Positions 5,981 to 39,386 of a DNA stretch of 40,116 bases are shown piece by piece. The DNA is from Spirochaetota bacterium (GTDB lineage: Bacteria > Spirochaetota > UBA4802 > JAFGDQ01). The translations under genes and the position numbers were made by a program. Under the pieces are notes generated by a model that was not told the origin of the DNA, searched no databases, and worked only from the letters and a program-made list of their open reading frames with translations. The number at the start of each line of letters is the position of its first letter. Position 1 is the stretch's first letter. The stretch spans positions 1 to 40,116 of the forward strand of contig JAXHTB010000001.1 in NCBI GenBank assembly GCA_034190185.1. The letters run 5' to 3'.

Positions 5981-6418
5981 TTTTTATGTATTAGTGCTAA
6001 ATTTACAGTAGAATATATATTTACTCTTATTTATTATCGAAATGAAAAATATTGATATATGTAAATTTGTAAGATTTATTTGAAAAAAATCGTTGCAAAA
6101 AAATTTTCTTAATATATAAAAATTATGGAATTCTACTCACAGTTTTATAAAATAATCAAAAAGAAACAGTTTATCATTAATAATTACTGTACAATTAATA
6201 TTATTTGAAATTTGTATATACTGTATCTATGTAGAATATAAACCAATTGTTATAAGGATTATAAAATACATCATCTGAACCTAACCAACGAAATATCGTA
6301 AGACCTTTTTTAAGATAAAAGTTATTTAATTTATATACAAAAATAATATTTATAATTTTAATTAGATTGATTACAATTATACAAATTATAATAAAAATAA
6401 TATATGTTGAAGTTCGGT

Positions 6419-6978: not shown

Positions 6979-7155
6979 GAGTAAATATTATAATTTCTTC
7001 TGATGCAAGGATATCTTTCATATTAACAAAAATAGAATTCTTGCATCATTAGGAATGACACCATCTGATAATTGGATTTTTCCATAGTTTTTGGAGATAC
7101 TCATATCATTTACTGCATATCTTATCATAAAAATATATAATTGGAATACTTTGAT

Positions 7156-8055: not shown

Positions 8056-8252
8056 CCAATATTTAATCTGACACTCTCATTTACTTTTGTTGTCTGCAAG
8101 TTATTATCCATAATTCTGGATTCTGTCTCTACTCTACTGGCTAATAATTTTAACAATTTGATTCAGGATACTCCAATTGTAATAATTGAATAAATTAACC
8201 TGATAAAGCTTTATAAGAATTAACCATGCTTCCAAAATCTAAATGATACTCT

Positions 8253-8282
8253 TTTTACCCTGATCTAGATCAGGGTAAAAAA
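8253..8282. terminator. Bidirectional rho-independent terminator between convergent genes
   Basis: Perfect palindrome TTTTTACCCTGATC|TAGATCAGGGTAAAAAA, with A/T runs on both sides. It lies between the PHP stop (8055) and the CBS gene stop (8285). Confidence 0.8.
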
Positions 8283-8284
8283 TT

Positions 8285-8932: not shown

Positions 8933-9057
8933 GTTTATAACCTCCTTATAATTTAAATTTTATTTTAGAAACATAATTTATTAGTTTATCTTTTTATCTA
9001 TTGAAATTTTTTGTTAGCCGACCATATTAACTAGAGTAAAGCTTTTTATTATATAGT

Positions 9058-9277
9058 AGGGCGGCGAGTATATTAAAAGTGTGTATAGTAAGGGGAAACT
9101 TCAGAAAATTAACTTAACTCTATCTATTGTAATTATGAGTAATAATTATGACTCATTAACATCTGCTTATCTCTTTGGTATTAAAATCCATCATAAAAAC
9201 TTTAACCACCATTTTAGCATAAACATTGTTTTAATTTATATGTGAGTTTTATGATTATAACTAATACTCGCCGCCCT
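9058..9277. repeat. 220-bp MITE-like element or structured RNA bounded by perfect 14-bp GC-rich terminal inverted repeats
   Basis: AGGGCGGCGAGTAT (9058..9071) is the exact reverse complement of ATACTCGCCGCCCT (9264..9277). The interior is AT-rich and non-coding, with an inner hairpin TTATGAGT...ACTCATTAA. I could not see a target-site duplication. Confidence 0.4.
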
Positions 9278-9718
9278 GTTAACATAACTTAAGTATAATG
9301 TACTTATAGACTAAAAGATTGCAATCAGCTATAGGCTGATTGTTTAATAGGATATATGATTTTTTTATTGTAGGATTGATGGATGTAAATTTGTAGGTTT
9401 TAGGGATGATCAGGTGAATAGTTAAATATTATTGGCATCAGGAATGAAAATTATACTGTCAAAGGATTATATTAATAATTAAAGTATAATGATTATTACT
9501 TGACTTTTTCAAGATCAATAACTAAAAAGTAAAAATCATTGAAATAATAAATAAGAAAGATCATCATCTGGAACTTGCCAACTAACTTTCATAAGTCTAT
9601 CATTATTCTGAGCAAAAAAAGAGAGTTAAGAAATATAATATTGTATATTTAATTTCATAATTTTAAATCGATAGATTATAATTTTTGTAATAAAATTTTT
9701 ATATGTTGGAGTTTTAGT

Positions 9719-10924
9719 ATGAAAGAGAAGAGTAAAGTATTATCTTTGTTATTTTTTTCAGTAAGCATTTTTTTCTTGAACAGTTCAAATACTAAGGCAA
9801 AAGAGGTTAGGGGAGTATCAGAGAATTTAGTAAAGATTGGTCTTAGCATGGATCAAACAGGTCCTGCTGCCTCTACACTTGTTCCTCTTACAAATGCAGT
9901 TCGAAATTTAGCTAGACATGTGAATGAGATTGGCGGTATTAATGGTAGAAAATTAAAAATAATTGTTGAAGATGATCGTTATTCAATCCCACCAGCTATA
10001 GCTGCAATAAAAAAACTAGTATACAAAGATAAAATATTTGCACTTATTGGTCCCAGTTCGGCAAGTTTAATAAATGTTATATGGAAACATATCCAGAAAA
10101 ATAAATTACCGACTATTGTTGCACCATCAACTGAGGTTGCTGTTGTACCTTACAAAAAGTATTTATTCATCTTTACTGAGACTTATACAGGTCAAGCGAA
10201 AATTCTAGTCAACTATATGATCAATGATTATAAAATGAAGAAAAGGAGGATCGGTCTAGTCTATCCTGACACTGAGACTGGAAAAACTGATTTAAGGGCA
10301 GTTTTACCGAAATTAGAACAGTATAAAATTAAACCAGTTACAAGTCAAATATTGATGCCTGGTGCATTAGATGCTACATCTCAGGTTTTAAATTTGAAAA
10401 GGAATAGGGTAAATTGTATACTAAATATTGGGACAATTCCACCAACATCTGTCACCCTACTCAGGGAATTAATGAAGTTTGGATTAAAAATTCCGGTCTT
10501 TCAAACTTATGGTGCTATGTTAGGTGAGGAACTAGCTCAAATGGGAAAGATAGCAGAGAATACATATATAGTTCATGCTATTTCACCATGGTATGGAGAG
10601 GGTGCTGGAGTTGCAGAGATGAGGAAGATAACTTTAAAATATCATCCAGGAACTGAAAAACCGTATCGCGGTACCGCATATACTGGTGGATGGGCATTAG
10701 AGTCTGCCCTTGTTATTGGGATGAAAAAAGCAGGAAGAGATCTTAATTGCAATACATTGATTAAGGCTCTTGAGACTTTCAAAGATTATGATAATGGTGG
10801 ATTATGCGGAATTATTAATTACAGTCCCACAAGCCATAAAGGTGGGGATACTGCTAGAATATTTAAAGTTGATACCAATAGTAAGAAATATGTTGCCATT
10901 ACAGGATGGCTAAAGGCAGAATAG
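9719..10924 (+). CDS. ABC transporter periplasmic substrate-binding protein (Peripla_BP_6 / LivK-like), second family
   Basis: 401 aa with a signal peptide (LLFFSVSIFFLNSSNTKA). IGLSMDQTGPAAS...NEIGGINGRKLKIIVEDD is the canonical N-lobe of Leu/Ile/Val-type PBPs. Confidence 0.85.
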   Translation: MKEKSKVLSLLFFSVSIFFLNSSNTKAKEVRGVSENLVKIGLSMDQTGPAASTLVPLTNAVRNLARHVNEIGGINGRKLKIIVEDDRYSIPPAIAAIKKLVYKDKIFALIGPSSASLINVIWKHIQKNKLPTIVAPSTEVAVVPYKKYLFIFTETYTGQAKILVNYMINDYKMKKRRIGLVYPDTETGKTDLRAVLPKLEQYKIKPVTSQILMPGALDATSQVLNLKRNRVNCILNIGTIPPTSVTLLRELMKFGLKIPVFQTYGAMLGEELAQMGKIAENTYIVHAISPWYGEGAGVAEMRKITLKYHPGTEKPYRGTAYTGGWALESALVIGMKKAGRDLNCNTLIKALETFKDYDNGGLCGIINYSPTSHKGGDTARIFKVDTNSKKYVAITGWLKAE

Positions 10925-19557: not shown

Positions 19558-20495
19558 ATGAAAGCAGTATTCAATAGAGACGAACTACTAAAGCTTGAAC
19601 ACTCCCTGAAAAAGGAGTATCTATTTTTCCCCGGAATATTTGAAGTAGAATTGGAGCAGGGTCAGTCTGTTATTTTTAGGACGTCAATTGAAAAAACCAG
19701 CTTATAATAGATGAATGGGAAGAAGAAATAACGAGGAAAGGGAAAGAACATAATAGATATTCAAAAAAGAAAGAGCCCCTTAAAACATTATAATTGGGAT
19801 CTCCAAATTCTATTATTGATAAAGACAGAATAAACGCGGGCTATCACTGGTTTAGTGAATGGGGGCGCAATGCTATGATATCGCTTACAGGCTTGACCTT
19901 GTGCGCCGGTAAAAGGGATATTGCCTTTAATATTTTACGTAAATACTCAAATTATGGGAAAAACGGGCTTCTTCCAAATTATTTATCAAAGGATAATAAT
20001 CACTCATATAATTCTATAGATACTTCGCTGCTTTTTGGGGGGCAATAGAAAATTATATCTATTATACAAAAGAAAAGGATATCGTAATATAGCATCTTCT
20101 AAATCCTATGATAGAGATAATAAAGGCGTTTATAGAAGATCGTATGCCTATCGCGGAGATAAGGAAGGACGGGCTTTTATATTCGGGTAATAAGAACAGC
20201 CAGTATACATGGATGGATGCCGCTGTTAATGGCAAACCCGTGATACCGCGGCATGGCGCGGCAGTTGAGATGAATGCGCTCTGGTATAATGCCGTATCTT
20301 TTCTATATCTTGAATTCGGCGATTTTCTTGAGCTTGGATTATTGGAGAAAATTGAATATAAAATGCAGCTTTTTGAAAATCATTATATCCGAGATATTCA
20401 ATCTGGATCCGCCGTATACTGCCAAGGGGTGTATGGCGCAGGCATGGAATATGGGTGAGGTTATAAGATCGCTTGATTTAATTAGTCATGTCTAA
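19558..20495 (+). pseudogene. Glycogen debranching enzyme (GDE_C / amylo-alpha-1,6-glucosidase, archaeal type) pseudogene
   Basis: The AAGGAG SD and ATG are intact, but the reading frame is broken into at least 4 pieces in 3 frames. The pieces are MKAVFNRDELLKLEHSLKKEYL..., AGYHWFSEWGRNAMISLTGL..., YTWMDAAVNGKPVIPRHGAAVEMNALWYNA... and ...GCMAQAWNMGEVIRSL. Total length is under half of the ~2 kb expected. Confidence 0.85.
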
Positions 20496-20595: not shown

Positions 20596-21873
20596 ATGAA
20601 GGCTCTCATGTTTGGTTGGGAATTCCCGCCATTTATTAGCGGAGGTTTGGGAACGGCATGCTATGGCATAACAAAAGGACTTCTGGAAAATGATGTGGAC
20701 GTTACATTTGTGCTGCCGACAAAAAAGGGCAAAGGAATAACAGGTCCCTTAAAGGTGATCGGCGCTGACGAGGTTCCATTAGTAAGCGATATTGAGGAAA
20801 TAGAAAGACGCCTTAAAATAATTAATACGGAGTTCGCCGCCCCTCTAACTCCTTATGTTACATCTTTGATCAATAATGAACATGAAAGCACAGGCGCTTC
20901 TATCAAGAACATGTTAGGCATGCATGGCGGCATTCTTAATTTTACAGGAAATTATGGAGAAAATCTTCTTTCAGAGGTAATGAGCTACAGCCTGGTTGGA
21001 GAAACTCTAGGTTTATTTGAGGACTTTGATATTATTCATGCCCATGACTGGCTCACCTTCCCAGCGGGTGTTCGAGCGAAACGGATAAGCGGCAAGCCCT
21101 TGATAGCGCATGTGCATGCCACTGAGATAGACAGGAACGGCGGCTGCGCCAATGAGGATGTTTTTAATATTGAAAAATATGGCATGGAAAATGCAGATAA
21201 AATAGTGGCAGTAAGCTTTTATACAAAAAATATTATAGTTAACCATTACGGCATAGATACTGATAAAATTGAGGTTGTTCATAATGCTGTAAATAAAAAA
21301 AAGCAGATTGAGAGATATAAAATAACAAGAAATCTTGATGAAAAGATAGTTCTTTTTTTGGGCAGGGTCACTATGCAAAAAGGACCGGAATATTTCATTG
21401 AAGCTGCGAATCTTGTGTTAAAGGATATTGATAATGTGAGATTTGTTATGGCAGGCAGTGGGGATATGCTTCCTCATATGATATCCAGAATGGCTGAGCT
21501 TAAAATTGCGGACAGATTCCATTTTACAGGATTTTTAAGGGGGGTAGAGGTCGAGAAAATGTATGCCATGAGTGATTTATACGTTATGCCTTCAGTCTCC
21601 GAGCCATTCGGACTTACTCCGTTTGAGGCTCTTTTATATGATGTGCCGATTATTATTTCTAAACAATCAGGGGCTTCTGAAATACTAAGGCATGCAATAA
21701 CATTAGATTTTTGGGATGTTGAAAAACTTGCAAACAGTATTGTTGCTATCTTGGGAAATGGTAAGGTGGGGAAAGAGATCGTAAGGGAATGTCAGGAAGA
21801 GATCCAGAATCTTGAATGGCACAATGCAGGAGAGAGGTTAAAGGATATATATTCTTCAATTAGTGTAAATTAA
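20596..21873 (+). CDS. GT-B glycosyltransferase, group 1 (glycogen/alpha-glucan synthase-like)
   Basis: The N-terminus MKALMFGWEFPPFISGGLGTACYG has a K/GGL-type loop. The C-terminal region contains SVSEPFGLTPFEAL (E-x7-E). Sits upstream of GH57 with an 11-nt gap. AGGAGG SD. Confidence 0.75.
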   Translation: MKALMFGWEFPPFISGGLGTACYGITKGLLENDVDVTFVLPTKKGKGITGPLKVIGADEVPLVSDIEEIERRLKIINTEFAAPLTPYVTSLINNEHESTGASIKNMLGMHGGILNFTGNYGENLLSEVMSYSLVGETLGLFEDFDIIHAHDWLTFPAGVRAKRISGKPLIAHVHATEIDRNGGCANEDVFNIEKYGMENADKIVAVSFYTKNIIVNHYGIDTDKIEVVHNAVNKKKQIERYKITRNLDEKIVLFLGRVTMQKGPEYFIEAANLVLKDIDNVRFVMAGSGDMLPHMISRMAELKIADRFHFTGFLRGVEVEKMYAMSDLYVMPSVSEPFGLTPFEALLYDVPIIISKQSGASEILRHAITLDFWDVEKLANSIVAILGNGKVGKEIVRECQEEIQNLEWHNAGERLKDIYSSISVN

Positions 21874-21884: not shown

Positions 21885-23114
21885 ATGATCTCAGTATGTT
21901 TTTACTTTCAGGTTCATCAGCCCTTTAGGCTGCAAAAGCATTATTCGTTTTTTGACATAGGGGCTAATCATTTTTATGAGGACGAAAGGAGGAATAGAGA
22001 AATATGCAATAAGGTGGCAGCAAAGTGCTATATCCCAGCAAATGAGATGATGCTTGAGCTTATTTATAAATATGAAGGGAAGTTTAAGGTAGCATATTCC
22101 ATCAGTGGTATTGCCCTTGAACAGTTTGAAAAATTTAATCCTGAAGTGATTGATCTTTTTAAAAGGCTTGCAAAAACAGGATGTGTGGAGTTTATCAATG
22201 AGACCTATTATCATTCATTATCTTTTTTGTACTCCAAGGATGAATTTAGAGAGGAGATACTTAAACATAGGAGAAAGATAGAAGAACTCTTTAACCAGAC
22301 ACCGACGACCTTCAGGAATACTGAGCTTATCTACAATGATGAGCTTGCTGAATTTATTGAAGAGATGGGTTATAAAATGATCCTTGCTGATGGGGCTGAT
22401 CAGGTGCTTGGATGGAGGTCCCCAAATTATCTCTATCAGCCTGCTAAATGCTATGAATTAAATCTGCTTATGAAAAATTATAGGTTATCAGACGATATTG
22501 CTTTTAGATTTTCAAATCGTGATTGGTTGGAATATCCCTTGACCGCGGATAGATATGCTCATTGGATTCATAATATAAGAGGGAATGGGGAGATTATAAA
22601 TCTTTTTATGGATTATGAAACACTTGGAGAGCACCAATGGGAAGATACAGGCATATTCGATTTTTTCCGCGCACTTCCAGAGATGATACTACGTCATAAT
22701 GAATTTCAGTTTATTACACCATCTGAAGCAAGCAAATATTATTCACCGATAGCTAAAATTGATATTCCTTATTATATATCCTGGGCTGATTTAGAAAGGG
22801 ATCTTACTGCATGGCTTGGCAATTCCATGCAGAATTCGGCTATTGAAATGGCATATGGGCTTGAAAAGGAGGTGTTATCATCAAATAATTTAGAACTGAT
22901 AGGTATTTGGAGAAAATTGTTGACTTCTGATCATTTTTATTATATGTGCACAAAGTGGTTCTCTGATGGAGATGTTCATAAATATTTCAATCCATACGAT
23001 TCGCCCTTTGATGCTTACTTGGTTTATGTAAATGTTTTGAATGATTTAAAAACTACACTAAAGAAGGATAATGTGTATAATAATATAGAGAGAGAATATT
23101 CTTTTACGGTATAG
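21885..23114 (+). CDS. Glycoside hydrolase family 57 (AmyC-like alpha-amylase / alpha-glucan-active enzyme)
   Basis: GH57 signature regions are present: CFYFQVHQPFRL (region I), FRNTELIY (candidate nucleophile Glu), FMDYETLGEH (candidate acid/base Asp) and LTSDHFYYM (region V). Confidence 0.8.
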   Translation: MISVCFYFQVHQPFRLQKHYSFFDIGANHFYEDERRNREICNKVAAKCYIPANEMMLELIYKYEGKFKVAYSISGIALEQFEKFNPEVIDLFKRLAKTGCVEFINETYYHSLSFLYSKDEFREEILKHRRKIEELFNQTPTTFRNTELIYNDELAEFIEEMGYKMILADGADQVLGWRSPNYLYQPAKCYELNLLMKNYRLSDDIAFRFSNRDWLEYPLTADRYAHWIHNIRGNGEIINLFMDYETLGEHQWEDTGIFDFFRALPEMILRHNEFQFITPSEASKYYSPIAKIDIPYYISWADLERDLTAWLGNSMQNSAIEMAYGLEKEVLSSNNLELIGIWRKLLTSDHFYYMCTKWFSDGDVHKYFNPYDSPFDAYLVYVNVLNDLKTTLKKDNVYNNIEREYSFTV

Positions 23115-23279: not shown

Positions 23280-23319
23280 TATTATTAAAAAAATATTATT
23301 GTTATATAGGGGTGAAGAA

Positions 23320-23760
23320 ATGAAAGTAAAAGAGATAATGATTAAGAATGTTTTAGAAACAAAGGCAGATTATTCGATCAAGGAGGTTAGTCGTCATTTA
23401 ATAAAAAATCATATTAATTGCATGCCTGTTGTTGACAATGATGGTTCATTAATTGGAATAGTGACTCAGGCAGATATTTTCCGAGCAATTCTTCCGAGCT
23501 ACGATGAATTATATAAAGAGGGAGAATATATAAATTTTGAACAGATAGAGGCACGTTCCTCTGATGTTAAAAATAGGAATATTAGTAATATTATGACGAA
23601 AGAAGTAATTTATGTTGATGAAGAAACACCTGTTGTCAAGGCTGGCTCTATTATGCTGTTAAAAAAAATAAAACAGATACCGGTTATAAACAGTAATAAA
23701 AAGTTAGTTGGTTTAATTACCTTTCATGATATCATTGAAGAGTTGATTATTAACCGTTAA
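23320..23760 (+). CDS. Stand-alone CBS-pair protein
   Basis: Two CBS repeats are present (VKEIMIKNVLET...INCMPVVDNDGSLIGIVTQADI and ISNIMTKEVIYV...IKQIPVINSNKKLVGLITFHDI). I prefer the ATG at 23320 over the TTG at 23299. Confidence 0.8.
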   Translation: MKVKEIMIKNVLETKADYSIKEVSRHLIKNHINCMPVVDNDGSLIGIVTQADIFRAILPSYDELYKEGEYINFEQIEARSSDVKNRNISNIMTKEVIYVDEETPVVKAGSIMLLKKIKQIPVINSNKKLVGLITFHDIIEELIINR

Positions 23761-24021
23761 GAGACTATCTTAGCGGACCTAGGCAACTAATATAAATTAA
23801 AGAGCTGTGCGGGTTTTCTCTTATTTTAATACTGTATTTATTGAATTGTGAGGAAATTCAACAAGGGAACCTAATGTAAAATCGTTTAATCTACCATATC
23901 GATGTCGGCTTTGATTAATGAGATGAACAAATGCTGATAATTTATTCTATTATTCATCAATTTTATTGCTTATCAGTCTCGATCATCATGAGAGAAATAA
24001 ATTCTATGCCAGAGGGATGAT

Positions 24022-27000
24022 ATGAAAAAGGGCAATCAGTTTCTTTTCGAAATATCATGGGAAGTTTGCAATAAAGTTGGAGGTATTTATACTGTAATTA
24101 GAAGCAAGCTTAATGAGGTCGTAAATAACTTTGGAGAAAATTATTTACTATTAGGACCCTTGTTTGAAGATAATCCAGAATTTTATGAAGATCATAGCGG
24201 AGATCTCGCAATTATTAATGATCAATTAAAACAGTCTAACATTACTTCTAAGGTCGGCAGGTGGAAGGTCGATGCTTCACCGAAGGTAGCACTTATTAAA
24301 TTTGAAGATTTTTCGGATAAAGATAAACTATTATACGAATTATGGAACGATTATGGCGTTGATTCAATGAGCGGCGGTTGGGATTATATTGAACCAGTGC
24401 TTTTTTCAACTAATGCTGCAAAGGCAATTGAGGTTATATATTCTCAATATGAAGATTTTAATATTTTTGCCCATTTCCATGAATGGATGACAGGAGCAGG
24501 ACTGCTATACTTAAGAAAAAATGTGCCAAATATCGCTACGATCTTTACATCTCATGCAACAGTTCTTGGAAGAAGCATGGCAGGAAACGGCGTCGATATC
24601 TACGGCACATTTCAGAATATTGATTCCAAAAAAGAATCGGCGAAATATAATGTAACAGCTAAACACACCCTAGAGTCAGCTTCGGCAAGAGAGACTGATT
24701 GTTTTACAACAGTAAGCGAAATAACAGGGATGGAAGCGACACATATTCTACATATGAAACCGGATGTTATTCTTCCAAACGGCTTCAATGTTCATGAGAT
24801 TCCTGACTATAATTCGAATAGAACATATTACAGAAAGAATAGAAAAAAAATGACGACCTTTGCTTCTCAATTCCTAATGAAGGATTTATCAGAGGAGGAT
24901 ACTGTCATCATATCAACATCAGGTCGGTATGAATATCACAATAAGGGAATTGACCTGCTTATAGATACGCTTGGAGAATTGTACAAAGAACAACATGAAT
25001 TAGAAAAAGGGATCATTGTATTTTTCTTTACAATTGGCGGATTTGTGGATATGTCAAAAGAAAAGAGTGGGAAGCTCTCCGGTGTCAAAGAAAGAATCCA
25101 GAAGTATTCTATGATATCGACTCATCCCCTATGGGACCCTTACAACGATCCAATTGCAAATGAATGTCACAATAAGAATATACAAAATAATCCAACTGAT
25201 AGAATAAATGTCATTTATATTCCAGTTTATCTTAACGGCAGGGACGGAGTTTTTAATATGGAATATTATGACGCCCTCTCAGGATGCGATCTTACGATCT
25301 ATCCATCCTTTTATGAGCCATGGGGCTACACTCCCTTAGAGAGCGCTGTGTACTCTATACCAACTGTTGTTTCGGATGTCGCAGGATTTGGGAATTGGAT
25401 AATAACTAATAAATTAAAGGGAGATGGTATAAAGATCGTTAGAAGATTTGGGGTTAATTATAATGATTCTGTGATTGATCTTAAAAGCTTTATTTTGTCA
25501 TTTATAAGAAAGGATGCCGACTCAATAAATTCGATGAAAATCTCTGCGAGGAGAATCGCTGAAAAGGCTGATTGGAAAATATTTTTTCAAAATTATACAC
25601 ATTCTTACGATATCGCATTAAAAAATAGGAATGATAGGCTTATAGGTAGAGACAGAAAAGAATTATTAAAATCAAAAGAACTCTTTCTTGCAAAGACATA
25701 TTCAACACGCCCGAGATTTCGCCAGTTTTCAATACAAGCGGCAATTCCAAAAGAGGTCGGGAAACTGAGAGAGCTTGCATATAATCTTTGGTGGACTTGG
25801 AATGACGACGCTTGCGATTTTTTTAAAAAAATGGATCCTGAACTATTTGAAGAACTAAATAATAATCCTGTGGCTTTTCTTGAATCTATAGAAATTCAAA
25901 AATTAAAAGGGATTATTTCAAATAAAGAATATATGCTGCTATACGAAAAGGTGACAAAAGAATTCACCAGATATCTTTCCGCAAGCAAGCCTCATTTGGA
26001 TATAAAATATATCTCAACAAAAAGACCCGTTGCTTATTTCTCTATGGAATTTGGATTCCATGAGTGTATGCAATTTTATTCCGGTGGATTGGGAATTCTT
26101 TCTGGAGATTATATTAAATCCGCTTCTGATTTGAATATGCCTGTCGTAGGAATTGGCCTTTTATACAAAAATGGCTATTTTAAACAACATATATCTAAAA
26201 TCGGGGAGCAGATTGAAGAATATGCTTTTAATGATTATTTGAGAATGCCCCTAAATGAACTTAAAAGAGAAAACGGGGAGAGATTATTAGTTAAATTAGG
26301 ACTGCCAGGCAGAACCCTGTATGCCCGTGTCTGGATGGCTGATATAGGAAGGGCTAAGGTATATTTCTTCGATACTGATATCCCAATGAATTCCGTATCT
26401 GACAGAGAGATAACGGGAAAATTGTATGGGGGAGGTGAAAGGATAAGAATAGAACAGGAGATATTGCTGGGTATAGGAGGTGTAAAATTACTTCAGAATG
26501 AATTAAATATATTTCCATCAGTCTATCATATCAATGAGGGGCATTCTGCGTTTCTTATCATTGAAAGGATCATAAACCTAATGAAAAAGTATAATATTGA
26601 TATAGATACAGCAAAGGAGGTTGTTAAGGCAAGCACTGTTTTCACTACACATACGCCAGTGCCGGCCGGCAATGAAACATTCGATATCCGCTTAATTGAA
26701 AATTATTATAGTAACTATATAAAAAATACAGGAATAAATCTTAAGGATATTATTGAGATGGGACACATTCAGCCATCAAATGTTGACCCCTATGAGATGA
26801 CTGTCCTAGCTTTGAATAATTCATATAAACGAAATGGCGTGAGTCGTCTTCATGGATATGTATCGCAAAATATGTGGAATGATTTATGGAAGGGATTTCT
26901 ATTAGAGGAATCCCCAATATTTCATATAACCAATGGGGTGCATGTGCCGACATGGCTTTCAAAAGAGATGAAAGAGCTGTTTTACGAGTATTGTTCAGAT

Positions 27001-28293
27001 GACCTTAATAAAACTTTATTGATAAGAGAGCAATGTGAGAAAATATTTAATATTCCGGATGATATTTTGTGGCAAACACATTTTGATTTGAAAAATAAGT
27101 TTATTAGTTATGTAAAAAAGGAAATTACAGCGCATTGGGAGAGGGAAGGAGAAGACTCAAGTCTTCTGAATAAATTTTTATCCACTCTGAACTCATCCTG
27201 TTTAACAATTGGTTTCGGAAGGCGCATTACAGCCTATAAAAGGGCCGCGCTATTTATAAAAAATTTGGACAGGCTGAGGAAAATAGTTAAAAATGAAAAA
27301 TATCCTATACAATTTATTATTGCAGGAAAAGCGCATCCTGATGATCAGAAGGGGCAGGATCTGGTAAAAGAGATTGTAGATATATCGAAACAAGAGGATT
27401 TTCTTGGTAAGATCGTATTTTTGGAAGACTATGACATGAAAATAGCACGAAAAATGGTCTCTGGAGTGGATGTATGGCTGAATAATCCAAGAAGACCTCT
27501 TGAAGCAAGCGGAACAAGCGGACAGAAGGCAGGCATCAATGGCGTAATAAACTTTAGTATACTTGACGGCTGGTGGGATGAAGGTTATGAAGGATCCAAT
27601 GGATGGATCATTGGAGATAGGAAGGAATATAAGAATCTGGATACGCAGGATGTTGTTGACAGTAATTCATTATACGATATCCTGGAAAATGAAATTATCC
27701 CCGCATATTATTTCAGAAAAGAGAAAGATATTCCTGAGAAATGGGTAAAAATAATGAAGAACTCCATAGTATCAATAATCTCTGAATATAATACTAACAG
27801 AATGCTTCGTGATTATGTTGTAAAAATGTATGAGCCAGCGGCTAAAAAATATTTTAAAATGTTTGAAGATGATTTTAATAAGGCAAAAGAAATTGTTCAA
27901 TGGAAGAAATCAATCAAATCAAGATTTTCCACTATCCGGATAAAAGATATTTCTGTTGTTGGGATATATGGAGATAATATAGATATCAATGACGAAATAT
28001 CAGTTACAATGGAAGTTGAATTGGGCAAGGTTTTTATAGAAGAATTAAGAGCAGAAATGCTAATATTTCAAGACAAGAAGATGGAAAACATTGATTATAC
28101 TGAAATGAGACCTGAGCGCAATAAAATAGAATATATTACAATGGATGCTATCGAAGAGAATGATAATAGTGTCAAATACAGTTGTAAATATAGAGGAGAG
28201 AAATCTGGGAAATATAATTTCGGCATAAGGGTTATTCCATACAACAATGATATTGACGATATTATCGATCTTGATCTGGTATATTGGGGATAG
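24022..28293 (+). CDS. Fusion protein: N-terminal GT3 (eukaryote-type) glycogen synthase + C-terminal GT35 alpha-glucan phosphorylase (DUF3417-type)
   Basis: Uninterrupted 1423 aa. The N-terminus [21 protein letters not shown] matches the GT3 glycogen-synthase signature ([17 protein letters not shown] in animals). From ~25.72 kb come [10 protein letters not shown] (DUF3417), YFSMEFG...[19 protein letters not shown], the PLP-lysine motif [15 protein letters not shown], and the typical ...GIRVIPYN...VYWG tail. Confidence 0.85.
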   Translation: [1423 protein letters not shown]

Positions 28294-28485: not shown

Positions 28486-31197
28486 ATGGTAAAAAGAGTG
28501 TATCTATTTGGAGAGGGCTGTACTGAGGGAAATGCAGAAATGAAAAATCTCCTTGGTGGGAAAGGAGCCAATCTGGCTGAAATGTCAATAATAGGAATTC
28601 CTGTTCCTGCTGGTTTTACAATCACAACCGAGGCATGTAATGAGTACCATACCAATAATAATATTATCCCGGAAGGGTTAGAGGGTGAGGTTGATCTTGC
28701 TCTTAAAAGGGTAGAGGATACTATGAAGGCGAAATTCGGGGATGAACATAACCCTTTATTGGTTTCTGTAAGATCTGGTTCGAGAGTTTCAATGCCTGGC
28801 ATGCTGGATACAGTGCTAAATATTGGTTTGAATGATAAGACTATAATTGGCATAATAAATAAAAGTAATAATGAAAGATTTGCTTGGGATACTTATAGAC
28901 GATTTATTCAGATGTATGGGAATGTAGTTATGAGCATAAAACCCTTGTCAAATGATAATTTCGATCCCTTTGAAGAAATTATTGATGATATAAAGAGATT
29001 GAAAGGAATAGATTCTGATCTTGAATTAAGCATTGATGATTTGAAAAAAATAGTAGAAAGATTTAAGGGAATGATCTGTAAGCGCTTGGGAAAAGAACTG
29101 CCGTCAGATCCATATGAGCAATTGTGGGAAGCTATTAAGTCAGTTTTTAAATCATGGAATAATGATAGAGCAATACTATATAGACGACTAAATAATATTG
29201 ATGATGATTGGGGAACTGGTGTGAATGTCCAAGCAATGGTATTTGGTAATATGGGTAAGGATTCTGCTTCTGGTGTTGCCTTTACAAGGAATCCAGTTAA
29301 TGGTAATAATGAATTATATGGTGAATATTTGATAAATGCTCAAGGGGAGGATGTAGTTGCTGGTATTAGAACACCACAGCAGATAACACTTGCAGGGTCT
29401 TTAGAATGGTCAAAGGCAAATAATATTGGTGAAGAAGAGAGAAACTCAAAATATATATCCCTTGAGGAGTATAAGAACGATATCTATAGAGAATTTATTG
29501 ATATTATTAAAAAGCTTGAAAATCGTTTTCTGGATATGCAGGATATTGAATTTACAATTCAGAATAACAAGCTCTGGATGCTGCAAACAAGGACTGGTAA
29601 AAGAACTGCAGAGGCAGCAGTTAGAATTGCTGTTGAAATGGTGAAGGAGGGATTGATTCAAAAGGAAGAAGCTCTTATGAGGATTGAGCCTAACTCTATC
29701 GAACAGTTATTACATCCAATATTTAGCCCAAAAGCAGCTAGAAAGGTAATTACAAAGGGTTTGCCATCATCCCCAGGCGCAGCAACCGGGAGGGTTATAT
29801 TTAATGCTGATGATGCAGAGAAGTATACAACTATAGGAGATGATGTTATTCTAGTAAGAATAGATACCTCTCCAGAAGACTTAAAGGGAATGAGTTTAGC
29901 TAAGGGAATTTTAACTGCAAGAGGAGGTATGACCTCTCATGCTGCTGTGGTCTCACGAGGTATGGGGAAATGCTGTGTCTCAGGATGTGGGGAATTAGAA
30001 ATAAATTATGCAAAAAGGGAGATGAAGGTCAAAGATATAATCATTAAGGAGGGAGATTATATTTCCATTGATGGTTCTAACGGAGATGTTATGGTTGGTC
30101 AGGTGCCAACTGAAGAGGCGCAGCTTTCTGGAAATTTTGAGATTATTATGAAATGGGCTGATGAAGTTAAAAGACTTAATATTAGAACAAATGCTGATAG
30201 CCCACACGATGCTGAGATTGCAAGGAGTTTTGGTGCTAAAGGTATAGGTTTATGCAGGACTGAGCATATGTTTTTTGAAGAGGATAGGATCAAAGTGATG
30301 AGAAAAATGATTCTTTCACATGACCTTGAAGGCAGGAAAAGGGCTTTAAATGAACTGCTTCCAATGCAGAGACAGGATTTTTATGGTATATTAAAAGCAA
30401 TGGAGGGATTTAGTGTCACTATTAGATTGCTGGATCCTCCATTACATGAATTTCTACCTCACGAAGATTATAATCAAAGAAAGATGGCTGAAGAGATGGG
30501 AACTAGCTCAGAGATCATTAAAGCAAAAGTTGATTCCTTGTATGAATTCAATCCAATGCTTGGTCATAGGGGTTGTCGTCTTGGTATTACATATCCTGAA
30601 ATTACAGAGATGCAGTCAAGGGCTGTCTTTGAAGCTGCATGTCAGCTTGTAAAGGAGGGCATTGATGTTAAACCTGAGATAATGGTTCCCCTTGTAAGTA
30701 ATGTTAACGAATTTCTACAGGAGAAAATGGTTATTGAAAAGACAGCCGAAAAAGTAATGAAAGAGCTAATGGTGAGGGTGGACTATTTAATAGGAACGAT
30801 GATCGAGGTGCCTAGAGCTGCAATAACAGCAGATGAGATAGCAAATGAGGCAGCGTTTTTTTCTTTTGGCACAAATGATCTCACACAGATGACTTACGGT
30901 TTTAGTCGTGATGATTCCGGAAAATTTTTAAATGAATATATTGATAAGAAGATATTAGCGCATAATCCCTTTAAAGAACTTGATCGTGATGGCGTTGGAC
31001 AGCTTATAAAAATAGCTATTGAAAAAGGCAGAAGTGTAAATTCAGAATTAGATGTTGGAATCTGCGGCGAACATGGTGGGGAACCAAATTCGATTGAATT
31101 TTGTCATATAGTGGGAATGGACTATGTAAGTTGCTCTCCTTTTAGAACACCTGTTGCAAGACTGGCAGCAGCTCAGGCTGCAATAATGAATAATTAG
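28486..31197 (+). CDS. ppdK: Pyruvate, phosphate dikinase
   Basis: 903 aa. Contains YLFGEG...GNAEMKNLLGGKGANLAEM, the catalytic-His loop GGMTSHAAVVSRGMG, and the PEP-utilising C-terminal domain (GLCRTEHMF, FFSFGTNDLTQ). Confidence 0.95.
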   Translation: MVKRVYLFGEGCTEGNAEMKNLLGGKGANLAEMSIIGIPVPAGFTITTEACNEYHTNNNIIPEGLEGEVDLALKRVEDTMKAKFGDEHNPLLVSVRSGSRVSMPGMLDTVLNIGLNDKTIIGIINKSNNERFAWDTYRRFIQMYGNVVMSIKPLSNDNFDPFEEIIDDIKRLKGIDSDLELSIDDLKKIVERFKGMICKRLGKELPSDPYEQLWEAIKSVFKSWNNDRAILYRRLNNIDDDWGTGVNVQAMVFGNMGKDSASGVAFTRNPVNGNNELYGEYLINAQGEDVVAGIRTPQQITLAGSLEWSKANNIGEEERNSKYISLEEYKNDIYREFIDIIKKLENRFLDMQDIEFTIQNNKLWMLQTRTGKRTAEAAVRIAVEMVKEGLIQKEEALMRIEPNSIEQLLHPIFSPKAARKVITKGLPSSPGAATGRVIFNADDAEKYTTIGDDVILVRIDTSPEDLKGMSLAKGILTARGGMTSHAAVVSRGMGKCCVSGCGELEINYAKREMKVKDIIIKEGDYISIDGSNGDVMVGQVPTEEAQLSGNFEIIMKWADEVKRLNIRTNADSPHDAEIARSFGAKGIGLCRTEHMFFEEDRIKVMRKMILSHDLEGRKRALNELLPMQRQDFYGILKAMEGFSVTIRLLDPPLHEFLPHEDYNQRKMAEEMGTSSEIIKAKVDSLYEFNPMLGHRGCRLGITYPEITEMQSRAVFEAACQLVKEGIDVKPEIMVPLVSNVNEFLQEKMVIEKTAEKVMKELMVRVDYLIGTMIEVPRAAITADEIANEAAFFSFGTNDLTQMTYGFSRDDSGKFLNEYIDKKILAHNPFKELDRDGVGQLIKIAIEKGRSVNSELDVGICGEHGGEPNSIEFCHIVGMDYVSCSPFRTPVARLAAAQAAIMNN

Positions 31198-34486: not shown

Positions 34487-35707
34487 TTATCCTAGCATTT
34501 CCATAAAATTTGCTATCTGATTTCTAATATATTCTTTATCATAGTCTCTTACATCTGAAAGATCACCAGGGATCAAGAGGGATGGTATTCCGAATTCTTC
34601 TGTAATCTCATCTTTAACTATCTTTTGACCTCCACAGTATAATCTACATCCTTTGTGGGTATACATTATTACTCCATCGATCTTATTTTCTCTGATCATT
34701 TCCTTAGTGAGATTTACGCGATTTTCAATAACTCCATTGAAAAAATTTGCAATATATTTTCTTGCCAGACTGTCAAGAGGATTATCTGGGTCTAACTCTC
34801 CAAGATATATATAATCCATATCTGACCGAACAAGTACACCTCCAAATTCTTCTACGTAATTGAGGAGGCTTGTATCATAGTTGATAATTGGTCCAAGCCA
34901 AAGCAGTCTATGCTTCTCATTTTCTATAATTCCCTTACCCTCTTTGACACGCTCTTGCACCTCTTTTAACAGCATCTGATAAAAACCAACTGCTTCTTTT
35001 GTTCCGAGTAACTGGATGAGTGGGTATATAGTGGATGATTCTTCAACGAGACTCATTGGGCAGGGAACAGTCTTTCTAAGCTCACTTATTTCCATCCAAA
35101 GGTCGTTAGTTTGTTTTGCATATCCAATTGTTTCTTTTAGTTTCTTTTCATCCAGTGGCTTGTTTGTTAATTTTTCAAGTATTGCTATCAATTCCTCACA
35201 CTGTTCCCTGTAGTATGCCACCTTTTCTTCTTCTACAGTTTCTTCAGTTCCGATTGTTGTTTGAAAGGGTGAATCCATTACATAATAGGGTACCTTGTAG
35301 TGTTCAACAACAGGAATATGAAGTTTAACACCACCATCACATGCATTAGTAGCCCCGATCACAAAATCGGGTTCCGGGATCATTAATTCCTCGCCAGAAA
35401 GCGCATATCCAACCACAGCCCTGTGGAAAGAGCAAATATTTCTTGGATAACCAAGATTTTCTGCCAGTTCAAGATAAGGAACTATCTTCTGCTTTACTGC
35501 AAGAAGTGTAGAGAAATGTTCTGTCATCATTGGCACAACATCCATTGCATGCAAAAGCTCAAGGGGCGCCATTAATATTGTCCAGATTACAGGCTTTTTA
35601 TCAAGTTTAGCTTGCCTTGCTTTTGCATAATAATCCTTTGCAATAGGCCATACAAGCCTTGCTGTCTTAAGCTTCTTTTTGGAACTGCTAAGGTCTGTTG
35701 AGCTCAT
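34487..35707 (-). CDS. 2-hydroxyacyl-CoA dehydratase / benzoyl-CoA reductase BcrB/C-family subunit (HGD-D), subunit 2
   Basis: 406 aa. Family-typical blocks are ICSFHR, PDFVIGATNACDGG, VPYYVMDSP, IDGVIMYTHKGCRLYCGG and GIPSLLIPGD. GAGGTG SD. Confidence 0.75.
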   Translation of the reverse strand: MSSTDLSSSKKKLKTARLVWPIAKDYYAKARQAKLDKKPVIWTILMAPLELLHAMDVVPMMTEHFSTLLAVKQKIVPYLELAENLGYPRNICSFHRAVVGYALSGEELMIPEPDFVIGATNACDGGVKLHIPVVEHYKVPYYVMDSPFQTTIGTEETVEEEKVAYYREQCEELIAILEKLTNKPLDEKKLKETIGYAKQTNDLWMEISELRKTVPCPMSLVEESSTIYPLIQLLGTKEAVGFYQMLLKEVQERVKEGKGIIENEKHRLLWLGPIINYDTSLLNYVEEFGGVLVRSDMDYIYLGELDPDNPLDSLARKYIANFFNGVIENRVNLTKEMIRENKIDGVIMYTHKGCRLYCGGQKIVKDEITEEFGIPSLLIPGDLSDVRDYDKEYIRNQIANFMEMLG

Positions 35708-35999
35708 TTCTGCACCTCAATTTTTATATTTATGGTTTTTATTGATCTAAAGGAACAAAGGCATAAAGATACTAAGGCAAAAAAGCAAGGATGTAGTTAT
35801 TCAACATTATTGGTTAATTATTTGAGTGTAACCAGAAACTATCGAATTTCTCTCATTTTATAGCTACAATTAAGTAAATAATAAGGATTTAGCATTTTTA
35901 AAGCAAATAATCTTTGCTTTAAGTTTTGAGGTTTACGATTTGCAGCTTAAAATATATCCTGAATTATATATTCTATAACCTTTGAACTTATAATTGATA

Positions 36000-37478
36000 T
36001 TAACCTTTTAAATGATGATGTCTATAATATTCAATAACCTTACTAAGGGCAACAGCTCCTCTTGTAAAGCTGGGGAAGTTTGCAATGCTTTTTTCAAGAA
36101 GTCGATTTTTCATTTCAATAGCGCCTGTCTCTACCTTTGAAGGTGGAATAATAACTATCAACGGTTTTTTTGACTTATTTCTGAAATTCTCAAGTGTGTT
36201 ATAAAAATATTCTTCAAAGTCTGTAAAGGCTTCTTTAAACCATTTTAAAAGATGCGCTGACATTTCTATTACAATAGCATCTATATTTTCATCATTATCA
36301 AGGATATCCATAGTAATATCTAAAAGTCTTTCCTTGCTTGGTATATCATCTCTTCCTAATAATGCTCGTCGAGTACTTTCTGCTAAGGAAAGGTTCCCAC
36401 CAAGATCGATAGGATTTCTATAACTAGCGCCTACAAGTGCAAAGATGGAGGCTAATTCTTGATAAGATTTTTCTGTAAGCATAGGAGCCTTAAAACCAAC
36501 TTTGGCAAATTGGTCTGTCATGTTTACACATTGCCCACCGCTTAATGATATAAGCCCAAGATTTTTCCCTCTTACTTCTGGAGTGTAGAGCAACATCATA
36601 ACAGTGTCAACAAGTTCTTCCAGATCATCAATCTGTATAGCTCCGCACTGCTTTATCAATGTCTCCCACATAAACATTGACTCCGCCATGGAACCGCTGT
36701 GCGAGGATGTGGCTATTGATCCCTCCTCAGTTTGACCGCCCTTCCATATAAGAATCGGTTTGCTGTTTGCTGATCTACTTAATAGATTGAACAGGGCTCT
36801 TCCATCTTTTATCCCTTCAATGTACATAGCAATAATTTTAGTCTCGTCATCCTGTAATAGATATTCACAATAATCTGTGCTGTCTAGAATATATGCATTC
36901 CCGAAACTGACAAGTTTGCTAATATTTATTCTGTTGTTATGTCCCACTACACTGAAGTTTATAGCGTGCCCACCGCTTTGAGATATAAAACCTACTTGGC
37001 CATTTTCTCCAGAATATTGGTCAGGGCTGTTTCTTAGACCCAATCTTGGATTGAAGATACCCATGCAATTGGGGCCAATGAGGTTTAGGTTTCCTTCCTT
37101 TGCGATTTCAGTGATAGTATTTGCAAGCTCTATTCCTTTTTCTGTCTTGGTTTCTGCAAAACCTGAAGTAAACATTGTAACTCCACCTACATCTTTATCT
37201 ATGCAATCCTTTAATATTATTGGAGATACCTCTCTAGGAACCGCCATTATAACATAATCCACAGGATCGGGCACATCCTTCAAGCTCAAATAGTTCTTTA
37301 TGCCGAGTTCTTCTATCCCAGGAATTTCATTTGGATCAATATTAACTGAAAAGACATCTCCCTGAAAGGTTTTTAATGATCTAAGGAAGAAGTAGTTATT
37401 ATTTTCATATTTATCACCAATAACTGCAACAGATCTTGGGTTAAATGCTCTCTTTAATCGGTCTAATTTAGATTCCAT
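36000..37478 (-). CDS. ADP-forming acyl-CoA synthetase alpha-type module (CoA_binding_2 + Succ_CoA_lig), no ATP-grasp domain
   Basis: Contains FNPRSVAVIGD, LIGPNCMGIFNP, GFISQSGG and the phospho-His motif region TSSHSGSMAES (compare SHTGALAG in ACD alpha). 492 aa, so there is no room for a fused beta/ATP-grasp part. Confidence 0.75.
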   Translation of the reverse strand: MESKLDRLKRAFNPRSVAVIGDKYENNNYFFLRSLKTFQGDVFSVNIDPNEIPGIEELGIKNYLSLKDVPDPVDYVIMAVPREVSPIILKDCIDKDVGGVTMFTSGFAETKTEKGIELANTITEIAKEGNLNLIGPNCMGIFNPRLGLRNSPDQYSGENGQVGFISQSGGHAINFSVVGHNNRINISKLVSFGNAYILDSTDYCEYLLQDDETKIIAMYIEGIKDGRALFNLLSRSANSKPILIWKGGQTEEGSIATSSHSGSMAESMFMWETLIKQCGAIQIDDLEELVDTVMMLLYTPEVRGKNLGLISLSGGQCVNMTDQFAKVGFKAPMLTEKSYQELASIFALVGASYRNPIDLGGNLSLAESTRRALLGRDDIPSKERLLDITMDILDNDENIDAIVIEMSAHLLKWFKEAFTDFEEYFYNTLENFRNKSKKPLIVIIPPSKVETGAIEMKNRLLEKSIANFPSFTRGAVALSKVIEYYRHHHLKG

Positions 37479-37620
37479 TAATGTGCCTCTTTGTTTTATG
37501 CAATTAATATTACTATTGAGGATATTTTTTTAAGTCTTTAGATAGACTTATAGCATTAGATACAAGATGTTATTGGGCGCCTATTATATTTATGGAAATA
37601 GTTTTTCGAAGGTAATTTTT

Positions 37621-38265
37621 TTATTTTTTTCGATACATCTCTGCTCTGTATCTTCCAGCTTTTAGTTCACGGATAAGATCTTGTACATTCTCTATCCTGT
37701 TTTCAAATATTGTTACAGAGCGTCCAACCTCTTGTAGTGTATGAGCATCGCTGCCGCCAGTGCCTTTAAGGTTTAGCATATTGCATACATTCATAGTGAA
37801 TTCATTTTCAATATCGCTGTTTTCTCCATTTATTGCCTCAATTGTGTCCATCTGTTTTAGGTATGGTTTTTTACTAGCTTCTTCCACGCTTAGGGATAAG
37901 CCAGGTATGGAGAAATCTTTTCCTTCAATAAATGCTCCTCTAAAGGGGTGAGCTGCTATCATCACTCCACCAACTTCATCAACCTTCTTTCTCAATTCAT
38001 TTATTGATACAATTCCTTCGCACTCTTTATCAAGACCAAAGACCAGAATGTCTCCATCCATTGAGGTTATCTCTACTCCCCCAAGGACTAAGAAGTTGTG
38101 TTCTTCGGACAATTTACGGATTTCCTCTGAGTCCCAGATTTTGTCGTGTTCAGTTAAACAGATACCATCAAGTCCAATACTTATAGCTTCCTCTATTAGT
38201 TCAACAGGGGTTATCTCACTGCATTGTGAGGCAGGAATTGTATGAATATGCATATCTATTATCAT
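37621..38265 (-). CDS. PHP-domain metal-dependent phosphoesterase (short form, 214 aa)
   Basis: Motifs MIIDMHIHT, LTEHD, GGVEIT, AAHPFR, EAING and GGSDAH. Its ATG overlaps the stop of the upstream HGD-D subunit in ATGA (38262..38265). Confidence 0.8.
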   Translation of the reverse strand: MIIDMHIHTIPASQCSEITPVELIEEAISIGLDGICLTEHDKIWDSEEIRKLSEEHNFLVLGGVEITSMDGDILVFGLDKECEGIVSINELRKKVDEVGGVMIAAHPFRGAFIEGKDFSIPGLSLSVEEASKKPYLKQMDTIEAINGENSDIENEFTMNVCNMLNLKGTGGSDAHTLQEVGRSVTIFENRIENVQDLIRELKAGRYRAEMYRKK

Positions 38266-39386
38266 AACATCTCCAAAAAAGCCTGAATTCTTGTTCTTAG
38301 TTGACCGAGGCCTGATGAAGGATGTTCTAACTCCACTTCAATTACGGGAATATTTTTTTCTTTGAGTCTGTTTTTTTGACCTACAAAATCGTATTGAAAG
38401 GTATCACAGTACATAAGACCGTATAAGATCACTCCATCAACCTTATAATCTTCTATCATATTAAACATATATTCAAATCGGGCATAAGGAGGTTCAATAC
38501 AGGCGCATGGAGCCATATTTAAATATCGAACACTTATATCATTTAAGGGATTACCCCCGTTATTGATATTGTCCCAGAAATACCGAGTTCCTGTACATAG
38601 ATCATCAGTGACTACTTCTGCTCCACACTCCTCTATTAGTTGAAAAAAGGATGTATTATCAATAATACTTCCACTGATCATTAATCTTGGTTGAGATTTC
38701 GGTTGATTTTCTATATTGTCGATATCTTTAATTAGTTCTTTCAGCAGCTTATTGTGCTGATCCTTTGGCATTATCATGCTTGATCTAATAATCTCAGATA
38801 TCTCAATAGCGCTTAATGGAGATTTATCATTTTTAAGATGGTTATGAATCTGCTTTAACAGTTCTCGGTTTTCGTTGTAGATTTCAATGGCATTCTTAAG
38901 GCTATTATCAGTGATCTCTATACCGGAGAATTTCTCTAACGATTCTTTAAGATTTTGTAATAATTTGAAATGATATTTTTGAGCTGTGTCAGTGATCTTA
39001 TGAGGATGATCTAACATGAATGAATATTTTGGTTCTATATATAATCGCCAATTATCAAAAAGTCGACATACAGCATCACAGCAATGAGCCACAATTATTC
39101 CATCTAAATAATCGTATTGTTTATCCAAAGCAAGGCCAAGGCAACCTCGAATGTAAGGGCACATATTGCTTTGCAGATAATCATCTCCCTCGCTTATTGT
39201 TGTTTCTTTGCTCATGATCCGGATTGGCAACATTCCGGCTGCATAGACAATTTCTTCCGGAACATAGTTACAAACCCAGCCGATTGCTTTTTTACCTTGG
39301 TCTTTCCATTCTATAATTGATTTATTGTGAGGGAATGAATTTAGTTCATCCCTCATTATCTTTAAGCTTTCAATTGAATGTGACAT
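38262..39386 (-). CDS. 2-hydroxyacyl-CoA dehydratase / benzoyl-CoA reductase BcrB/C-family subunit (HGD-D), subunit 1
   Basis: 374 aa. Family-typical blocks are KAIGWVCNYVPEEIVYAAGMLPIRI, MCPYIRGC, LDGIIVAHCCDAVC, VVTDDLCTGTRYF, VDGVILYGLMYCDTFQ and IPVIEVELE...GQLRTRIQAFLEML. Confidence 0.8.
   Translation of the reverse strand: MSHSIESLKIMRDELNSFPHNKSIIEWKDQGKKAIGWVCNYVPEEIVYAAGMLPIRIMSKETTISEGDDYLQSNMCPYIRGCLGLALDKQYDYLDGIIVAHCCDAVCRLFDNWRLYIEPKYSFMLDHPHKITDTAQKYHFKLLQNLKESLEKFSGIEITDNSLKNAIEIYNENRELLKQIHNHLKNDKSPLSAIEISEIIRSSMIMPKDQHNKLLKELIKDIDNIENQPKSQPRLMISGSIIDNTSFFQLIEECGAEVVTDDLCTGTRYFWDNINNGGNPLNDISVRYLNMAPCACIEPPYARFEYMFNMIEDYKVDGVILYGLMYCDTFQYDFVGQKNRLKEKNIPVIEVELEHPSSGLGQLRTRIQAFLEML

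Follow-up and report, generated by a model that had tools for sequence, protein, structure and literature searches.

Glycogen synthase and glycogen phosphorylase are treated in textbooks as separate, reciprocally regulated enzymes, and the locus described here raises the question of why a bacterium would carry both in one polypeptide. The locus belongs to a Spirochaetota metagenome-assembled genome (MAG; assembly GCA_034190185.1) and lies on contig JAXHTB010000001.1, of which positions 1 to 40,116 of the forward strand were analysed (40,116 nt, the entire contig, hereafter the window). One gene of the window encodes a GT3 glycogen synthase joined to a GT35 alpha-glucan phosphorylase. The textbook-separate pair was found as one polypeptide, in a conserved operon, in many anaerobes, including Spirochaetota, Desulfovibrionales, Syntrophales, Fibrobacterota, Planctomycetota and many Bacteroidota. 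The protein is probably a bifunctional glycogen enzyme, with both modules active and co-localised in equal amounts on the glycogen particle, and would represent the fused state of a gene pair in which GT3 precedes GT35. The gene and its parts were delimited as follows.

24022..28293 (+): fusion gene, GT3 glycogen synthase :: GT35 alpha-glucan phosphorylase (single open reading frame, domain matches, exact NCBI protein match)
24012..24016 (+): Shine-Dalgarno core GAGGG, 5 nt before the ATG of the fusion gene (read from the sequence)
24022..25617 (+): GT3 glycogen synthase module, residues 1-532 (PF05693, alignment to yeast Gsy2p, AlphaFold2, Foldseek)
25618..25710 (+): inter-module linker, residues 533-563 (alignment of 35 fusions)
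25744..26070 (+): DUF3417 alpha-helical domain, residues 575-683 (PF11897, E = 4.8e-31)
26029..27837 (+): GT35 catalytic core, residues 670-1272 (TIGR02094, alignment to the Segatella copri phosphorylase ScGP)
27937..28239 (+): C-terminal beta-sheet domain of clade-2 phosphorylases, residues ~1306-1406 (AlphaFold2 strands at model residues 786-886)

The open reading frame (ORF) started with ATG and continued for 1423 codons without interruption, according to both the ORF listing and the translation, and matched the single uninterrupted frame reported by an earlier reading made from the letters of the window (the sequence-only reading). A run of 1423 codons free of stops has a chance of ~1e-46 at 34.9% GC, and the two other forward frames contained 98 and 158 stops across the gene. 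The order of modules was GT3 (residues 1-532), linker (533-563) and a complete clade-2 GT35 phosphorylase (564-1423). The three Pfam models proposed as a check all matched, namely Glycogen_syn (PF05693; E = 2.9e-100), DUF3417 (residues 575-683) and Phosphorylase (residues 834-1183), and the NCBIfam model TIGR02094 ('alpha-glucan family phosphorylase') covered residues 670-1272 with 802.4 bits against a cut-off of 191.7. The GT3 hallmark motif (21 residues) was located at residues 9-29 and the motif of the lysine binding pyridoxal phosphate (PLP; 15 residues) at residues 1161-1175, in agreement with the sequence-only identification of a GT3 synthase followed by a complete DUF3417-type phosphorylase.

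The protein is an exact match to NCBI entry MDY6967047.1, from a Spirochaetota MAG, which is named only 'alpha-glucan family phosphorylase'. Most NCBI homologues carry the same name, which covers the C-terminal half only. In metabolic reconstructions based on product names the synthase half is thus invisible, and glycogen synthesis of such MAGs can be wrongly called absent.

A search of 5.8 billion protein clusters was used to verify the distribution of this architecture. The best 120 matches were all 1401-1429 aa long, with 99-100% query coverage and the same Pfam architecture, and came from Spirochaetota, Fibrobacterota, Ca. Raymondbacteria, Bacteroidia, Acidobacteria, Syntrophales, Smithellaceae and Desulfovibrionales. 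The Desulfovibrionales matches included contigs of 3.8-4.1 Mb (Salidesulfovibrio, Pseudodesulfovibrio, Desulfovibrio), complete genomes among them, and the Salidesulfovibrio onnuriiensis locus (CP040751) was among those retrieved. The closest relative among the matches listed was 66% identical and was fused in two independent assemblies (L001, L002). Residue conservation was assessed on an alignment of 35 fusions, 44-66% identical to the window protein, and the join aligned gap-free in 34 homologues that come from independent assemblies.

The linker itself consists of 31 aa, of which ten are lysine or arginine, and corresponds to the short K/R-rich segment previously placed at 25.62-25.72 kb. 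Among the 35 fusions its length stayed within 27-31 aa, and 25 of the proteins had precisely 31 aa. The residues themselves were variable, except for an invariant R539 and an F/Y-x-G-x-x-S motif, and the monomer models predict that it is disordered (residues 539-571 in the GT35 model).

In the GT3 half, PF05693 matched in two stretches with a total of 337.1 bits (cut-off 27), and yeast Gsy2p matched with an E-value of 5.5e-82. The catalytic and UDP-binding residues, mapped from the Gsy2p alignment, were E154, H178, R302, K308, Y415, E432 and E440 (Gsy2p E169, H193, R320, K326, Y492, E509 and E517), and all seven were invariant in the 35 aligned fusions. An AlphaFold2 model of residues 1-560 reached a predicted local distance difference test (pLDDT) of 88.6 and a predicted template modelling score (pTM) of 0.86. 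With this model as Foldseek query, the first 39 matches were all human GYS1, yeast Gsy2p or Caenorhabditis elegans glycogen synthase (query-based score TMq 0.79-0.86), whereas GT5 GlgA reached a TMq of only 0.53-0.56. The GT-B fold, the KVGG motif and the catalytic and UDP-binding residues are those of the eukaryotic GT3 enzymes (Gsy2p, GYS1 and C. elegans GSY-1).

The regulatory features of these enzymes were not retained. The glucose-6-phosphate site of Gsy2p is gone (H500 is replaced by D423), and the arginine cluster R580, R581, R583, R587, R589 and R592 is replaced by A, D, I, K, S and R, respectively, at positions that vary across the 35 aligned fusions. The tetramerisation coiled-coil insert of Gsy2p (residues 355-440, ~86 aa) is reduced to a segment of ~28 aa (residues 336-363), in which the loop 343-356 has a pLDDT <50 and is predicted to be disordered. 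The phosphorylatable N- and C-terminal tails of eukaryotic GT3 are absent as well, as only 8 residues precede the hallmark motif and the GT3 module passes into the linker at its C-terminal end. Judged from the alignment and the model, the GT3 half is a stripped-down GT3 without the eukaryotic control elements. Prevotella bryantii, which has no glgC, uses a eukaryote-type UDP-glucose glycogen synthase (PMC7935935; PMC4432691). By homology and by the physiology of that species, the activity of the GT3 half is most likely that of a UDP-glucose:glycogen 4-alpha-glucosyltransferase.

For the GT35 half, the closest solved structure was that of ScGP from Segatella copri, with an alignment E-value of 1.2e-204. 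The active-site residues, mapped from this alignment, were H877, R1067, R1068, Y1072, K1073 and K1169 (ScGP H316, R507, R508, Y512, K513 and K609), the last being the PLP lysine (codon 27526-27528), and all six were invariant in the 35 aligned fusions. The AlphaFold2 model of residues 521-1423 (pLDDT 84.1) superposed on ScGP (PDB 9L6I) along its entire length, the C-terminal beta domain included, with a target-based score (TMt) of 0.93 at 37% identity, compared with a TMt of only ~0.6 for clade-1 and clade-3 phosphorylases (Escherichia coli EcGP, rabbit GP, Dorea DlGP). The C-terminal family PF28476 (GlgP_C) was recorded on fusion homologues. The equivalog cut-off of the Thermococcales maltodextrin phosphorylase model NF041129 was not reached (749.8 against 1500 bits), which indicates a related subfamily rather than membership.

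ScGP, a clade-2 glycogen phosphorylase described in PNAS in 2026, is catalytically active and assembles into a pentamer that wraps around a glycogen particle, with its DUF3417 domain as the pentamer interface (PMC12912991). Binding of AMP at a distal site (R583) causes two pentamers to stack and shuts out glycogen, which inhibits the enzyme; the reverse reaction shows a good Km for glucose-1-phosphate (G1P) and a low kcat, whole glycogen particles are bound and degraded, and PLP is missing from one protomer of five (PMC12912991). That paper mentions neither glycogen synthase nor fusions (PMC12912991). By analogy with ScGP, phosphorolysis would be the reaction of the GT35 half. The comparison of the distal AMP site was made on the equivalent of R583, which is R1143 in the fusion and is arginine in 29, lysine in 5 and serine in 1 of the 35 fusions. 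ScGP is a stand-alone protein of 852 aa, whereas in the fusion the equivalent of its N-terminal loop runs into the linker and the 532-aa synthase module.

The distribution of fused and split states was further inspected. One genome per GTDB species was scanned and 80 loci were kept, which were sorted by ORF analysis and tblastn. A fused single ORF was present in 30 of the 80 loci (Alistipes, Rikenellaceae, many Bacteroidales, Flavobacteriales, Planctomycetota and Desulfovibrionaceae), two adjacent genes, GT3 then GT35, in 14 (Bacteroides faecis, Phocaeicola vulgatus, Parabacteroides, Tannerellaceae and Muribaculaceae), and a phosphorylase by itself in 36. In the complete split loci, the stop-to-stop frames comprised 554-612 codons for GT3, and the GT35 genes comprised 852-882 codons. 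The GT3 gene stops just past the last helix of the module, and the GT35 gene begins at the post-linker motif after a spacer of 11-119 nt. The pairs of B. faecis, P. vulgatus, Parabacteroides and Muribaculaceae have the same module order, with the boundary at the linker position, but form two polypeptides instead of one.

Neighbour-joining trees of the two halves, built without support values, agreed in their main clades and placed the window protein next to a Spirochaetota MAG (L001), a Bacteroidia MAG (L004) and two Desulfovibrionaceae (L003 and L034). In the GT35 tree the split forms made up one clade nested within the fused Bacteroidota, a topology which, bearing in mind that the trees carry no support values, suggests a single secondary fission. 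ScGP, which comes from gut Bacteroidota, appears to be the secondarily split-off half of a fused unit. In two loci (L012, 823-5112; L018, 5878-10284), the split GT3 and GT35 genes were in frame with a single stop between them, and these may be recent fissions or sequencing variants. Programmed read-through was considered for the split pairs and rejected, as most pairs were out of frame with spacers of 11-119 nt.

The fusion gene is usually the last gene of a conserved operon, in the order GH133, GT4, GH57 and fusion. The corresponding genes of the window, and the two others that flank the fusion gene, are listed below.

19612..20483 (+): decayed GH133 (amylo-alpha-1,6-glucosidase, glycogen debranching enzyme) pseudogene at the head of the operon (tblastn)
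20596..21873 (+): GT4 glycosyltransferase, 425 aa (Pfam and NCBIfam matches, synteny in 23 of 30 fused loci)
21885..23114 (+): GH57 protein, 409 aa (Pfam PF03065, E = 1.4e-77, synteny)
23299..23760 (+): CBS-pair protein, 153 aa, between the GH57 gene and the fusion gene (two Pfam CBS matches)
28486..31197 (+): pyruvate,phosphate dikinase, separated from the end of the fusion gene by 192 nt (TIGR01828, 1360 bits)

Salidesulfovibrio onnuriiensis and a Bacteroidia MAG both showed the full arrangement, with GH133 (~650 aa), GT4 (~426 aa), GH57 (~400 aa) and the fusion last. The GH133–GT4–GH57 trio, or its visible part, adjoined the fusion in 23 of the 30 fused loci, and also in L001, L003 and L004; three of the remaining fused loci had full flanks without the trio, and four were too short to judge. 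In Alistipes and Rikenellaceae the trio is located downstream of the fusion. By contrast with the fused loci, the trio was missing within 6 kb of all 11 split loci whose flanks were complete. In the window, the GH133 remnant consists of four pieces in frames 1, 3, 2 and 3, with nothing left of the N-terminal ~216 aa or of residues ~480-616. An undamaged GH133 gene occupies this position in the Desulfovibrionales and Bacteroidia relatives (L003, L004), and the closest Spirochaetota relative (L001), in which GT4 and GH57 precede the fusion, has no GH133 gene at all. The best PDB relatives of the GT4 protein were GlgM (maltose-1-phosphate synthase), MshA and the archaeal GlgA of Pyrococcus abyssi; the GH57 protein had no PDB relative by sequence at E <= 0.001.

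The GT4–GH57 pair was also located at 7498-9981 in L003 and at 7422-9928 in L004, and the two proteins, both uncharacterised, are near-constant partners of the fusion across phyla. In a Bacteroidales MAG (L075, 1604-8547) and a Prolixibacteraceae MAG (L077, 1233-8550), GH133, GT4 and GH57 are followed by a clade-2 phosphorylase, with no GT3. Either GT3 has been lost or relocated in these two genomes, or GT4 acts as the synthase.

Fusions of this kind are known to databases. KEGG entry K16153, 'glycogen phosphorylase/synthase [EC 2.4.1.1 2.4.1.11]', corresponds to this architecture (PMC8307300) and is in routine use in annotation pipelines (PMC11093988), and homologues aligning at 100% coverage carry the IMG names 'phosphorylase/glycogen(starch) synthase' and 'glycogen phosphorylase/synthase'. 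Members of K16153, such as gene P0067 of S. onnuriiensis (CP040751) and genes of Alistipes and Rikenellaceae, share the module order, the linker of ~31 aa, the length of ~1400-1430 aa and the operon partners. The window protein differs from the listed members in sequence (44-66% identity), and its locus in having GH133 as a pseudogene and a CBS gene inserted upstream of the fusion.

The frequency of the fusion was estimated from a search with the GT3 half as query in 1.84 billion representatives of 50%-identity clusters, which gave 441 matches at E <= 1e-30. Among the best 150 of these, 27 were at least 1300 aa long, 20 were 720-1299 aa and 96 were 480-719 aa. The 720-1299 aa class probably consists mostly of fusions clipped by contig ends, and clipped fusions also occur in the short class, as exemplified by P0128 (662 aa), which ends within the DUF3417 region. 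Because the length classes include such clipped fusions, about one third of the nearest GT3 lineages (best 150 of 441 matches) are taken to be fused. The rarity implied by the sequence-only reading thus did not hold, but its statement that no such fusion was known to have been characterised biochemically agreed with the literature searches.

The window protein is hence a new instance of a fusion that is catalogued and, in the searchable literature, biochemically uncharacterised. New here are the conserved operon, the relation of fused and split forms to ScGP, the constancy of the linker in length and the disappearance of all eukaryotic GT3 controls. Other alpha-glucan enzyme fusions are given in the accessible part of a 2024 Chem Rev review, namely TreS–Mak/Pep2, GlgB–MalQ of Neisseria and GlgA–GlgB of Waddlia, and that part does not mention GT3::GT35 (PMC11046441). 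Like these three, the present fusion places consecutive or related glucan steps in one chain; unlike them, it joins nominally opposing activities rather than steps of the same direction. A link to the glycogen futile cycling of Fibrobacter succinogenes was considered and dropped, as papers on strain S85 describe one gene for the synthase and another for the phosphorylase, and a pathway through ADP-glucose.

The reading of the protein as a bifunctional enzyme builds on the observed architecture, the conserved catalytic sets, the lost eukaryotic regulation, the interchange of fused and split states and the operon context. Which reactions the modules catalyse, from which sugar donor, in which oligomeric state and under which regulation is inferred from homology and from the analogy with ScGP. 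The GT3 module would lengthen alpha-1,4-glucan chains with a nucleotide sugar as donor, most likely UDP-glucose, and the GT35 module would catalyse the reversible, PLP-dependent phosphorolysis of the same chains to G1P. The fusion would ensure equal dosage of the two activities and place both on one glycogen particle. If the phosphorylase half behaves as ScGP does, it would contribute glucan binding and pentameric assembly, and would thereby stand in for the tetramerisation insert and the glycogenin tether that are missing from bacterial GT3. The switch between synthesis and breakdown would be set by AMP and by the ratio of inorganic phosphate (Pi) to G1P, acting on the phosphorylase half, together with the supply of UDP-glucose, and not by glucose-6-phosphate or by phosphorylation of the synthase. 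The fusion could reveal how GT3 works without glycogenin, glucose-6-phosphate control and phosphorylation, and how bacteria avoid or exploit glycogen futile cycling.

A more specific form of this arrangement, extrapolated from ScGP and doubtful as it stands, is a ring around one glycogen particle, with five synthases held at a fixed distance by the 31-residue linkers and with AMP-driven ring stacking or another quaternary change toggling between growth and phosphorolysis. If true, the protein would be a self-contained glycogen machine with an oligomeric-state switch, replacing the phosphorylation and glucose-6-phosphate control and the glycogenin tether of eukaryotes.

Several points weigh against the bifunctional reading or parts of it. 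Pentameric assembly and the AMP response are extrapolated from ScGP, which belongs to a split-gene lineage, and five added N-terminal modules of 60 kDa could alter or block the pentamer. The adjacent GT4 could be the real glucan synthase, or a second one, given the two loci in which a clade-2 phosphorylase follows the trio with no GT3. Neither galU nor glgC was present on the 40-kb contig, and the donor specificity cannot be read from sequence. A linker so constant in length hints that the modules are held in a more defined geometry, or communicate with each other more, than simple tethering would require. Finally, no enzymatic, genetic or structural data on any fused protein were found in the searchable literature.

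Among the alternatives, the probability that the gene is an artefact, in which two neighbouring genes were merged by a missed stop or a frameshift, is negligible. Although split adjacent pairs occur elsewhere, some of them in the same frame with one stop (L012, L018), and although the GH133 gene nearby on the contig is frameshifted, the full-length form recurs in at least 120 independent clusters, complete genomes included, the linker aligns without gaps, the twice-assembled closest relative is fused, and the chance occurrence of such an ORF is as low as calculated above. It is also very improbable that one half is non-catalytic, for instance that the phosphorylase is a glucan-binding or oligomerising platform or that GT3 is an inactive relic. 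This would suit the NCBI name, which mentions a phosphorylase only, and the one in five ScGP protomers without PLP, but all checked catalytic residues of both halves are invariant among sequences as divergent as the 35 fusions, and both structure models are of high confidence. The sequence-only reading had itself named a hidden stop or frameshift at the junction and a loss of catalytic residues in one half as the findings that would overturn it; with both catalytic sets invariant in 35 of 35 fusions and the join conserved, both objections therefore fail.

Other explanations accept two working halves and assign them a different relationship. The phosphorylase half may be mainly synthetic, extending or holding malto-oligosaccharides from G1P and passing them to GT3, in replacement of glycogenin. 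Cellular Pi/G1P ratios normally favour phosphorolysis by GT35 enzymes, the synthetic kcat of ScGP is low, ScGP binds and degrades whole particles, and the GT4 of the operon is an equally good candidate for priming, all of which make this alternative unlikely, even though the conserved operon includes no glycogenin-like gene and the fixed linker length and the good Km of ScGP for G1P would be consistent with it. It would also meet the need of GT3 synthases for a primer, which glycogenin supplies in eukaryotes according to the accessible part of the 2024 review (PMC11046441). Still less likely is obligatory reciprocal control in one chain, in which the modules touch and the active state of one blocks the other. 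A linker of 27-31 aa across phyla with an invariant R539, and concordant trees of the two halves, which imply long co-inheritance, point in this direction; on the other side, the linker is predicted to be disordered, the known allosteric machinery of GT3 is absent, and in the clade of Bacteroidaceae, Tannerellaceae and Muribaculaceae each module is a protein of its own. As an entire clade does without the covalent link, that link cannot be mechanistically obligatory. Among the three purposes proposed by the sequence-only reading, co-localisation on the granule is thus favoured by the evidence, whereas obligatory intramolecular allostery is disfavoured by the separate genes of Bacteroides, Phocaeicola, Parabacteroides and Muribaculaceae and by the absence of eukaryotic GT3 regulation.

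Two genes next to the fusion appeared to be particular to this contig. The CBS-pair protein had no counterpart in 84 related loci, and the pyruvate,phosphate dikinase gene was not seen next to the fusion in other related loci. CBS pairs often bind adenine nucleotides, and a local regulatory role for the CBS-pair protein is conceivable. A second protein with two CBS domains is encoded at 8285-8932 (-).

Concerning the rest of the window, promoter-like sites (60 compared to 42±7 expected) and terminator-like sites (3 compared to 5.2 expected) were near background, and the window scan detected no Rfam families and no tRNAs. The region 524-10924 contains a gene for an ABC permease of the branched-chain-amino-acid type near three paralogous genes for Peripla_BP_6 substrate-binding proteins (2486-3772, 4189-5448 and 9719-10924). 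A cluster at 34487-39386 (-) encodes a protein resembling the 2-hydroxyacyl-CoA dehydratase D-component, a protein that combines succinyl-CoA-ligase-like and CoA-binding domains, a protein with a CehA/McbA-type (PHP-like) metallohydrolase domain and a reductase-like protein of the double-cubane-cluster type, which suggests anaerobic acyl-CoA metabolism.

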